From NCBI RefSeq assembly GCF_003334815.1, contig NZ_QOWO01000090.1: a stretch of 1,979 bases of DNA; one strand, given 5' to 3'. The notes under the pieces were generated by a model that made no database searches, had not been told where the DNA came from, and was given only the letters and a program-made list of their open reading frames with translations. Positions within the stretch are counted from its first letter, which is position 1; the number at the start of each line of letters is the position of its first letter. This document shows positions 1 through 1,979 of this stretch, piece after piece. The position numbers and the translations under genes were made by a program. This stretch comes from Escherichia coli. GTDB taxonomy: Bacteria; Pseudomonadota; Gammaproteobacteria; Enterobacterales; Enterobacteriaceae.

Positions 1-810
1 AACCAGATGGACCCGGTGTACACGCCGGCGCGAAAAATCCACCTGTACCACTGCGACCATCGCGGCCTGCCGCTGGCGCTTGTCAGCACGGAAGGGGCAA
101 CAGAATGGTGCGCAGAATACGATGAATGGGGCAACCTGCTGAATGAAGAGAACCCGCATCAGCTGCAGCAGCTTATCCGCCTGCCGGGGCAGCAGTATGA
201 TGAGGAGTCCGGCCTGTATTACAACCGCCACCGCTATTATGACCCGCTGCAGGGGAGGTATATCACTCAGGATCCGATTGGGCTGAAGGGGGGATGGAAT
301 TTTTATCAGTATCCGCTGAATCCGGTTCAGTATATAGATTCAATGGGACTGGCATCAAAATATGGACACTTAAATAATGGCGGATATGGAGCGAGACCCA
401 ACAAACCGCCTACGCCCGATCCAAGTAAATTGCCGGACATAGCGAAACAATTAAGACTGCCATATCCTATTGACCAGGCCAGTAGTGCGCCTAATGTTTT
501 CAAAACATTCTTCAGAGCATTAAGCCCTTACGACTACACACTGTATTGCAGGAAGTGGGTAAAACCAAATCTGACTTGTACGCCACAGGATGATTCCCAG
601 TATCCAGGGATGGATACAAAGACAGCAAGTGATTACCTGCCACAGACAAATTGGCCAACAACTCAATTACCACCAGGATATACTTGTGCAGAACCCTATT
701 TATTCCCAGACATTAATAAACCCGATGGGCCAGCAACAGCAGGGATAGATGATTTGGGTGAAATTTTAGCTAAGATGAAACAGAGAACATCGAGAGGAAT
801 AAGAAAATGA
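1..810 (+). CDS. Rhs-family polymorphic toxin, 3' portion (5'-partial; gene begins upstream of the window). Core end is 1-351, variable C-terminal tip is 352-807, stop TGA is 808-810.
   Basis: Frame 1 is open from base 1; the ATG at 7 is an internal Met, not the true start. The translation ends in a typical Rhs core terminus (YDEWGNLL...[45 protein letters not shown]) with the DPxGL-(17 aa)-DxxGL boundary motif, followed by an unrelated 152-aa extension. GC content by eye falls from high-50s percent to about 40 percent at position 352. Confidence 0.9.
352..807 (+). other. Variable Rhs C-terminal tip (putative toxin domain, about 152 aa, unassigned family)
   Basis: Begins immediately after DSMGL (ends at nt 351). 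AT-rich relative to the core. Pro/Tyr/Thr-rich, with 3 Cys (residues 181, 191 and 227 of the track ORF). No nuclease, deaminase or ADP-ribosyltransferase motif recognisable by eye. Confidence 0.6.
794..798 (+). promoter_or_regulatory. Ribosome-binding site for the downstream immunity ORF
   Basis: GAGGA lies 8 nt upstream of the ATG at 807, inside the 3' end of the toxin CDS. Confidence 0.45.
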
Positions 811-1376
811 AAAGAGTTTTGTTCTTTTTGCTGATGATATTTGTTAGTTTTGGTGTTATAGCTGATTGCGAAATACAAGCTAAAGATCATGATTGTTTTA
901 CTATTTTCGCTAAGGGTACTATTTTTTCCGCGTTTCCTGTCTTAAATAATAAAGCCATGTGGAGATGGTATCAGAATGAGGACATCGGTGAGTATTATTG
1001 GCAAACAGAACTGGGTACATGTAAAAATAATAAATTCACACCAAGCGGGGCGAGACTCTTAATTCGCGTCGGGTCACTACGCCTTAATGAAAATCATGCC
1101 ATCAAAGGAACGTTGCAGGAGTTGATAAATACAGCAGAAAAAACGGCGTTTCTCGGCGATCGGTTTAGAAGTTATATAAGAGCGGGTATCTATCAAAAAA
1201 AGAGCAGTGATCCAGTTCAGTTGTTGGCAGTCCTTGATAATTCAATCATGGTAAAATATTTTAAAGATGAGAAACCAACTTATGCTCGAATGACAGCACA
1301 TCTCCCGAACAAAAATGAGTCTTACGAATGTTTAATAAAGATACAGCATGAACTAATTCGTAGTGAAGAGAAATAA
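807..1376 (+). CDS. Putative Rhs immunity protein (189 aa) with predicted N-terminal Sec signal peptide; function inferred from position only
   Basis: The ATG at 807-809 overlaps the toxin TGA at 808-810 (ATGA). A GAGGA Shine-Dalgarno sits at 794-798, 8 nt upstream. The N-terminus [22 protein letters not shown] has a basic n-region, a hydrophobic core and a V-I-A signal peptidase I-like site. AT-rich like the toxin tip. Its position directly 3' of the Rhs tip is the canonical immunity gene location. Confidence 0.75.
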
Positions 1377-1446
1377 AATCTCTTCCTGAGAAAACAAATT
1401 AATCATTGTGAAAAATTATATAACTCATGGAATAGGTGTTTATTTT

Positions 1447-1488
1447 GCGTTCCATTTGCAGGGAAAGATCACGTAACGCTACTTTTTT
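1447..1488 (+). terminator. Weak candidate Rho-independent terminator after the immunity gene
   Basis: Imperfect inverted repeat GCGTTCC (1447-1453) / GTAACGC (1473-1479) followed by TTTTTT (1483-1488). The stem is short with one mismatch and the loop is about 19 nt, so support is poor. Confidence 0.2.
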
Positions 1489-1590
1489 GTACTAAATAAT
1501 TCGAATTTTAAGTTCAACAATTGAGATACTACTTATTGTCTAAAGCTGTTTTTCATAGCTTATACATGATCAAATACTCCTTACATAAAT

Positions 1591-1596
1591 AAGGTG
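1591..1596 (+). promoter_or_regulatory. Ribosome-binding site of the H-repeat transposase frame
   Basis: AAGGTG lies 5 nt upstream of the ATG at 1602. Confidence 0.4.
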
Positions 1597-1601
1597 AACA
1601 A

Positions 1602-1979
1602 ATGGAACTTAAAAAATTGATGGAACATATTTCTATTATTCCCGATTACAGATAAGCCTGGAAAGTAGAGCATAAATTGTCAGGCATCCTACTATTGACT
1701 ATTTTTGCCGTTATTTCTGGTGCAGAAAGTTGGGAAGATATAGAGGATTTCGGGGAAACACATCTCGATTTCTTGAAGCAATATGGTGATTTTGAAAATG
1801 GTATTCCTGTTCACGATACTATTGCCAGAGTTGTATCCTGTATCAGTCCTGCAAAATTTCACGAGTGCTTTATTAACTGGATGCGTGATTGCCATTCATC
1901 AAATGATAAAGACGTCATTGCAATTGATGGAAAAACGCTCCGGCACTCTTATGACAAGAGTCGCCGCAGGGGAGCGATT
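1602..1979 (+). pseudogene. H-repeat-associated protein / ISAs1-family transposase, N-terminal part (3'-partial, runs off window), interrupted by an in-frame TAA at 1653-1655
   Basis: Frame 3 translation: [125 protein letters not shown]. From memory this matches the N-terminus of enterobacterial H-rpt (ISAs1-family) transposases, which are classically found next to Rhs elements. The stop sits where I recall homologs having Gln (CAA). Confidence 0.8.
1602..1979 (+). mobile_element. H-rpt / ISAs1-family insertion element, left portion. The true left boundary probably lies somewhere in 1377-1601 but cannot be placed.
   Basis: Transposase reading frame as above. No terminal inverted repeat can be defined because the right end is outside the window. 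Confidence 0.6.

Follow-up and report, generated by a model that had tools for sequence, protein, structure and literature searches.

The RhsC locus and the question of the spacer

In Escherichia coli, the Rhs immunity gene ybfC is separated from the H-rpt transposase gene by a short AT-rich spacer, and the question is whether this DNA is a place where new toxin tips are acquired, a regulatory element, or the junction left by an insertion sequence. We analyzed a stretch of 1979 bases (the window), which matched the RhsC locus of many E. coli chromosomes with 100% identity, among them those of E2865 and the O26:H11 strain 11368. The RefSeq annotation under the match comprised an RHS core protein, ybfC, and an ISAs1-family transposase pseudogene. 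The E2865 locus (L002) provided the coordinates outside the window, with window base 1 corresponding to L002 5001, and its gene order was ybfA, a full-length Rhs gene with a ybfO-type tip, ybfC, a single defective H-rpt, and ybgA.

The genes of the window are all on the plus strand. The 3' end of the Rhs gene (1..810) contains the end of the conserved core, to about position 350, followed by the ybfO-type C-terminal toxin tip. Residues 2-117 of the product matched the NCBIfam models RHS_core and Rhs_assc_core, RefSeq names it 'RHS element core protein' in E2865, and the GC content changes from 58.7% in the rhs core end to 42.9% in the tip. The next open reading frame is ybfC (807..1376), annotated by RefSeq as 'protein YbfC' and presumed to be the immunity gene of the tip; YbfC was assigned to no NCBIfam family in the profile comparison. 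The 5' part of the H-rpt transposase pseudogene (1602..1979) continues past the window end. It matched the ISAs1 family transposase model NF033564 at window 1656-1979 with 127.4 bits (cutoff 70), the intact O157 relative scored 405.2 bits, and RefSeq flags the gene with 'internal stop; missing C-terminus'.

The stop codon of ybfC (TAA) occupies 1374-1376 and the ATG of H-rpt starts at 1602, leaving a gap of exactly 225 bp (1377-1601). Its GC content was 28.9%, compared with 41.2% for the window, 36.7% for ybfC, and 39.2% for the coding part of H-rpt. No ORF of at least 25 aa was contained within 1377-1601, and a minus-strand ORF of 30 aa (1581..1673) overlapped only its 3' edge. The description of the spacer as AT-rich and devoid of an ORF, given in the first-pass annotation, was thereby upheld. 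We consider the 225-bp interval not to be a functional unit but a fossil junction at which an Rhs toxin/immunity cassette meets an insertion sequence (probability of about 0.9). The RhsC-linked H-rpt junction of E. coli has itself been known for a long time.

The left end of H-rpt

Six left flanks of H-rpt, placed side by side, were unrelated right up to CAGGGAAAGATCA and homologous from that base onward. Likewise, the alignment of nine H-rpt copies with unrelated flanks (alignment A1) became homologous exactly at window position 1459, which, judged by these sequence comparisons, is the left end of H-rpt. The first-pass annotation had expected the junction of the insertion sequence inside the interval and proposed an alignment to H-rpt left ends; when this alignment was run, the junction was located there, with the copies homologous from 1459 onward. 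The interval 1377-1979 was also not continuously homologous in genomes lacking H-rpt, as H-rpt homology begins at 1459 and the homology of ybfC haplotypes ends at about 1415-1419.

The same annotation had identified no clean terminal inverted repeat, and we found that one exists. The left terminal inverted repeat (IRL, CAGGGAAAGATCACGTAA) lies at 1459..1476 on the plus strand and was defined by the nine-copy alignment and by pairing in the K-12 ybfL copy. In this intact copy of 1290 bp, the first 18 nt are complementary at 16 of 18 positions (89%) to the last 18 nt (IRR). The eight right ends terminate in ...CGTAATCTT(T/G)CCCTG or a close variant, an ending also given in the common form ...TCGTAATCTT(T/G)CCCTG or a close variant. 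The element starts with CAGGG, which we take to be the consensus end of the ISAs1 family in ISfinder.

H-rpt has the attributes of an ISAs1-family insertion sequence. It carries short terminal inverted repeats at both ends, its transposase exceeds the cutoff of the family model, and its intact relatives measure 1290-1291 bp with a single transposase ORF of 378 aa, within the size range of about 1.2-1.5 kb.

From the left end to the transposase start, the element has a 5' untranslated leader of 143 bp (1459..1601, plus strand), corresponding to element positions 1-143 of every intact 1290-1291 bp copy, with a mean column identity of 87% in alignment A1, unrelated flanks counted in. The RefSeq 'ISAs1 family transposase' pseudogene feature omits these 143 bp of leader and IRL. 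The left boundary of H-rpt in this common RhsC haplotype is now set to the base, at 1459; outside annotation, the significance is slight. Dam sites (GATC) were observed at 1467-1470 in the IRL and at 1568-1571 in the leader, about 30 nt 5' of the ATG, and the right repeat has GATT instead. This asymmetry is reminiscent of the Dam-regulated elements IS10 and IS50.

Composition of the spacer

The spacer was submitted to BLAST against 5426 complete E. coli genomes. As a result, the entire spacer was found in about 2736 genomes; the other matching genomes, and extra places in the first class, matched only from query positions 81-84 (one from 79) to 225, with 85-90% identity. With window 1150-1600 as the megablast query, most of the H-rpt-only matches listed started at query position 310, which is window 1459 (range 302-335), and the ybfC-only matches, in O157:H7, BL21, and SCU-109, stopped at query 265-270, which is window 1414-1419. 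The spacer is composed of a cassette tail (1377-1419), a haplotype-specific stretch (1420-1458), and the IRL with the leader of the insertion sequence (1459-1601).

The ybfO/ybfC cassette 3' tail (1377..1419, plus strand) travels with ybfC and was delimited by homology to the O157:H7, BL21, and SCU-109 haplotypes, which runs about 39-43 bp beyond the stop codon, 1377-1419 being about 90% conserved. The 39-bp flank (1420..1458, plus strand) is specific to this haplotype according to a 41-mer search and local alignment. The overlapping 41-mer (1418-1458) occurred in 2745 of the 5426 E. coli genomes, at 2747 places in total. A distant BLAST of this 41-mer in all E. coli genomes gave no source for 1420-1458, and local alignment of the 39-mer itself to 10 fetched loci gave nothing above shuffled controls.

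The low GC content of the spacer is the sum of two unrelated low-GC pieces and not the property of a single spacer. The cassette tail plus flank has 28.0% GC and the leader 29.4%, and the leader is comparably A+T-rich in every H-rpt copy of alignment A1.

A defective and mosaic H-rpt copy

The H-rpt copy of the window is 977 bp long (L002 6459-7435) and ends outside the window, at L002 7435 or window coordinate 2435. Element positions 911-1223 are missing through a 313-bp internal deletion, also outside the window, and the right repeat is degenerate (CAGGACAAATTTA on the complement). The search beyond the 3' end of the window that the first-pass annotation had suggested was thus productive for the matching right end, in this degenerate form, and gave no target-site duplication. 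Within the coding part, codon 18 is an in-frame TAA (1653-1655) where other copies have CAA, and the C>T change at 1653 is common to K-12 ybfL. With the nonsense codon, the 313-bp deletion, and the degenerate right repeat, this copy cannot encode a transposase.

The single copy was then compared with the H-rptC array of K-12 RhsC (ybfQ, ybfL, ybfD). The two share the left junction base for base (225 of 225, with the 82-bp flank and the IRL among them), and their right junctions by ybgA are identical. In addition, the CAA>TAA change matches ybfL, and the 313-bp deletion with the degenerate IRR matches ybfD. They differ in copy number: three stand in tandem in K-12 (a fragment of 380 bp, a full copy of 1290 bp, and one without the first 25 bp), whereas the window haplotype has one 977-bp hybrid. 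In the K-12 array (L001 6083-8706), copy 2 is joined by its right end to copy 3, the one that lacks its first 25 bp.

The SNP pattern of the window copy is that of K-12 copy C1 in the leader, is of the C2 (ybfL) type between about 1639 and about 2024, and agrees with C3 (ybfD) after that. The window copy is best read as the recombinational collapse of a K-12-like three-copy array, the direction being suggested by parsimony. RecA-type recombination between H-rpt repeats would account for the reduction of three copies to one hybrid. As the transposase is a pseudogene, the only plausible remaining activity of the window copy would be to provide repeated homology for such recombination. The mosaic copy indicates that H-rpt copies recombine with one another, and in this way they may help to reshuffle Rhs cassette arrays.

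Target-site duplications and empty sites

The first-pass annotation had also proposed a search for target-site duplications and a comparison with empty-site homologs; neither yielded a hit. Comparison of 30 nt on each side revealed no target-site duplication around the window copy or the seven others. Simple transposition into this exact spot therefore cannot be shown, with no duplication at any of the 8 copies. The window copy has its left end from one member of the former array and its right end from another, and any duplications would be erased by recombination between copies.

Empty sites were counted with an 82-mer, the 41-mer, and a junction-spanning 70-mer in the 5426 E. coli genomes, together with two pattern scans of metagenomes, and none was found in either. 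The 70-mer occurred in 2745 genomes, the same number as the 41-mer, so that the flank was joined to the IRL in 2745 of 2745. In the metagenomes, the last 24 nt of the flank were followed by C in 62 contigs, all 62 of which continued with CAGGGAAAGATCACGTAACG into the IRL, and no contig had a base other than C at this point. Polymorphic presence and absence of H-rpt, as expected of a mobile element, was not detected at the ybfC junction.

Such a polymorphism does exist for the composite Rhs element and not for H-rpt at the junction. UTI89 lacks the whole RhsC element and has ybfA, 100 bp (L018 23340-23439), and ybgA. Relative to UTI89, the right border of the island is 37 bp past the right end of H-rpt, which places H-rpt near the edge but not at it. 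The ybfC/H-rpt junction is an old, fixed relic common to about half of the sequenced E. coli.

The one partial match was in strain MSB1_9D (L006), where an IS1A lies within the spacer at the equivalent of about window 1423. The DNA to the left of IS1A is linked to corA/rhsB and not to ybfC, which points to a rearrangement mediated by IS1 whose breakpoint falls in the A+T-rich flank.

Among the fetched loci with YbfC relatives in other species, no H-rpt-free orthologous junction was present, only differing arrangements. Homologs of ybfC with 71-72% amino acid identity and no toxin tip occur in Citrobacter sp., Pseudocitrobacter vendiensis, and Escherichia sp. MOD1-EC7003 (L009 1560-2223, L010 4606-6567, and L011 2-785). 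In the Citrobacter and Pseudocitrobacter loci, an H-rpt right end precedes the ybfC homolog by about 60 bp. A 46-bp fragment of the H-rpt right end lies just 5' of the ybfC homolog in L010 and L009, in L010 directly after a complete right end, and in L011 the homolog follows a truncated internal fragment of H-rpt.

Signals in the leader and flank

In an intact element, the IRL would be the end bound by the transposase, and a leader hairpin (CTCCTTA...TAAGGAG) would sequester the Shine-Dalgarno sequence and limit translation. The predicted conserved hairpin, CTCCTTA/TAAGG(A>T)G, covers the Shine-Dalgarno at 1577..1596 on the plus strand and was obtained in the consensus fold of 8 copies and in the single-sequence fold. 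With A>T at 1595, the window copy loses one pair of the predicted hairpin and has a weaker Shine-Dalgarno. No covariation was detected among the 40 predicted leader pairs of the 8 copies, the sequences being too alike.

The search for other signals in the spacer gave neither an RNA family match nor a fold or signal above background. There was no Rfam match at E<=1, no terminator-like site in the spacer, and no sigma-70-like promoter on the plus strand of the spacer region; in the consensus scans, promoter-like and terminator-like matches were no commoner than in shuffles. The fold z-scores of the leader (-0.55) and of the flank 1372-1458 (about -1.0) were not significant, and the fold of 1377-1640 had z = -2.2. 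A promoter-like site was seen on the minus strand at 1442-1415 (TAAACA, 16-nt spacer, TATAAT; 10/12), directed into ybfC; such sites are at shuffle expectation.

The last 16 nt of the flank (1443-1458, TTTTGCGTTCCATTTG) are complementary at 14 of 16 positions to the start-codon region of H-rpt (1599-1614, CAAATGGAACTTAAAA). This value was reached by 7 of 2000 flank shuffles against the start region and by 8 of 400 against the whole leader, and the complementarity was absent from seven other H-rpt flanks. It resembles the fold-back inhibition of read-through transcripts, with the arm outside the insertion sequence and the gene dead. Another 10-nt complement (1506-1515 with 1605-1614) was dismissed as chance, as it is made by substitutions unique to the window copy.

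Tip exchange and alternative explanations of the junction

In K-12, rhsC carries another tip and is followed by ybfB, and the ybfO tip stands behind them as an orphan; in E2865, the window haplotype, the ybfO tip is fused to the full-length Rhs gene. A 1035-bp rhs core segment (L002 4305-5339), present twice in K-12, lies more than 1 kb upstream of the spacer. K-12 and E2865 were 99.4% identical over the region that starts with the orphan core fragment, includes ybfC and the spacer, and extends 380 bp into H-rpt; within it, the spacer was 100% identical. No homology to the rhs core was found in 1377-1601, the core ending at about window 350, and no tip/immunity module was inserted at the spacer between these two close strains. 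As read from the sequences, the tip difference between K-12 and E2865 bears the mark of recombination in the rhs core, and the spacer has no part in it. This agrees with the published C-terminal displacement model, in which homologous recombination occurs in the rhs core (PMC2935791). New toxin tips would accordingly enter through recombination in the rhs core and not at the spacer.

The first-pass annotation had regarded the spacer as an orphan-tip acquisition site, where new modules are inserted between the immunity gene and H-rpt. This proposal has a basis in the haplotypes, which differ just past ybfC: O157:H7, BL21, and SCU-109 hold 1.4-1.6 kb of additional orphan immunity genes (NTF2-fold immunity protein, DUF6258) after ybfC and before H-rpt (L003 5228-6669, L004 5228-6838, and L005 5228-6756, respectively), and this cargo starts at the equivalent of about 1416-1420. 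However, the ybfC regions of these three strains are 6-10% diverged from the window, and because of this divergence we regard them as old alternative arrays and not as recent insertions. Among close relatives, only K-12 and E2865 show a clear gain or loss of a tip, and it maps to the duplicated 1035-bp core and leaves the spacer unchanged; in Phytobacter ursingii, 33 bp separate the ybfC homolog from the core fragment that opens the next orphan, and H-rpt is absent; and the published mechanism also operates in the core (PMC2935791). We consider acquisition at the spacer highly improbable, and the idea of new Rhs tips entering beside the immunity gene is corrected to an exchange point in the rhs core at this locus. 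An even more remote prospect is that the interval is an active regulatory element, acting as a ybfC terminator, as a promoter or sRNA, or as a fold-back structure shielding the transposase start from read-through. The 14/16 complementarity between flank and start codon (7/2000 flank shuffles) and the z-score of -2.2 for 1377-1640 favor such a role, but the complementarity was spotted post hoc, is less exceptional against the whole leader, and is missing from the seven other flanks. Moreover, Rfam matches and terminator-like sites are lacking in the spacer, promoter-like sites occur at shuffle expectation, the fold of 1372-1458 reaches only z = -1.0, and the transposase to be regulated is a pseudogene.

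Two further proposals concern how the fossil junction arose and what H-rpt does beside it. By adjacent deletion mediated by H-rpt, an ancestral array like that of O157 or BL21 could have lost DNA beside the left end of the insertion sequence, which would have brought the IRL near ybfC. Three left junctions at one chromosomal locus, all with an intact IRL, are consistent with this: ybfC plus 82 bp in the window and K-12, ybfC plus 1442 bp in O157, and ybfC plus 1611 bp in BL21, where the left end of H-rpt cuts into an rhs core fragment. Over its first 1447 bp, the BL21 cargo runs collinear with that of O157, and the right junction is common to K-12, BL21, and the window strain. Yet 1420-1458 has no counterpart in the cargo of O157, BL21, or SCU-109, as a simple nested deletion would need, and the ybfC alleles are diverged, which leaves adjacent deletion unlikely. 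In the second proposal, H-rpt may act as a downstream homology anchor that, together with the rhs core, brackets the variable toxin/immunity region, so that a double crossover swaps whole cassette arrays between Rhs loci or strains. Compatible with an anchor are the different cassette arrays that abut an intact IRL at one locus, the O157-like ybfC array of SCU-109 at a different, nikR-linked Rhs locus with H-rpt farther downstream, and the orphan ybfC homologs that flank H-rpt ends in other genera. We regard the anchor as a tentative proposal with a low probability; under it, the complementarity of the flank to the transposase start could be a by-product.

Comparison with known systems

The intact ISEc1/H-rpt copies (ydcC and the RhsC-linked copies of O157:H7 and BL21), named 'ISAs1-like element ISEc1 family transposase' by RefSeq, resemble the window copy in the IRL start CAGGGAAAGATCA, the leader, the predicted Shine-Dalgarno hairpin, and a nucleotide identity of 91-96%. 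They differ from it in having 1291 bp, an uninterrupted transposase of 378 aa, and a good IRR, whereas the window copy carries a deletion and its gene is a pseudogene. The ISAs1 family, whose prototype is from Aeromonas salmonicida, has in common with H-rpt a DDE transposase matching NF033564, a single ORF, short terminal inverted repeats, and a length of about 1.3 kb. In contrast to the family, no target-site duplications surround any H-rpt copy examined. No transposition of H-rpt has been observed (PMC3032704).

In the O-antigen locus of Salmonella group D2, an H-repeat remnant likewise lies exactly at the boundary of DNA blocks of different origin (PMC3715488). This remnant has been proposed as the mediator of the rearrangement, in a model that combines replicative transposition with homologous recombination (PMC3715488); the locus and the cargo differ, with O-antigen genes in place of an Rhs cassette. 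The mosaic structure of the window copy and the published H-repeat relics at recombination junctions fit a role of H-rpt as repeated homology.

The C-terminal displacement of Rhs proteins (Jackson et al. 2009; PMC2935791) is similar to the case described here in that a tip that is attached in one strain stands downstream in the other, as an orphan accompanied by a duplicated core fragment. The exchange point in that model is the core and not the spacer past the immunity gene, and H-rpt has 0 occurrences in the text of that paper (PMC2935791).

Finally, two contigs assigned to other organisms match this E. coli RhsC DNA, namely QFQM01000662.1 from a 'Flavobacterium psychrophilum' MAG (100% identity) and JARKOR010000224.1 from a 'Candidatus Nanosynbacter' MAG (97% identity) (L007 and L008). 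These assignments are almost certainly binning contamination.
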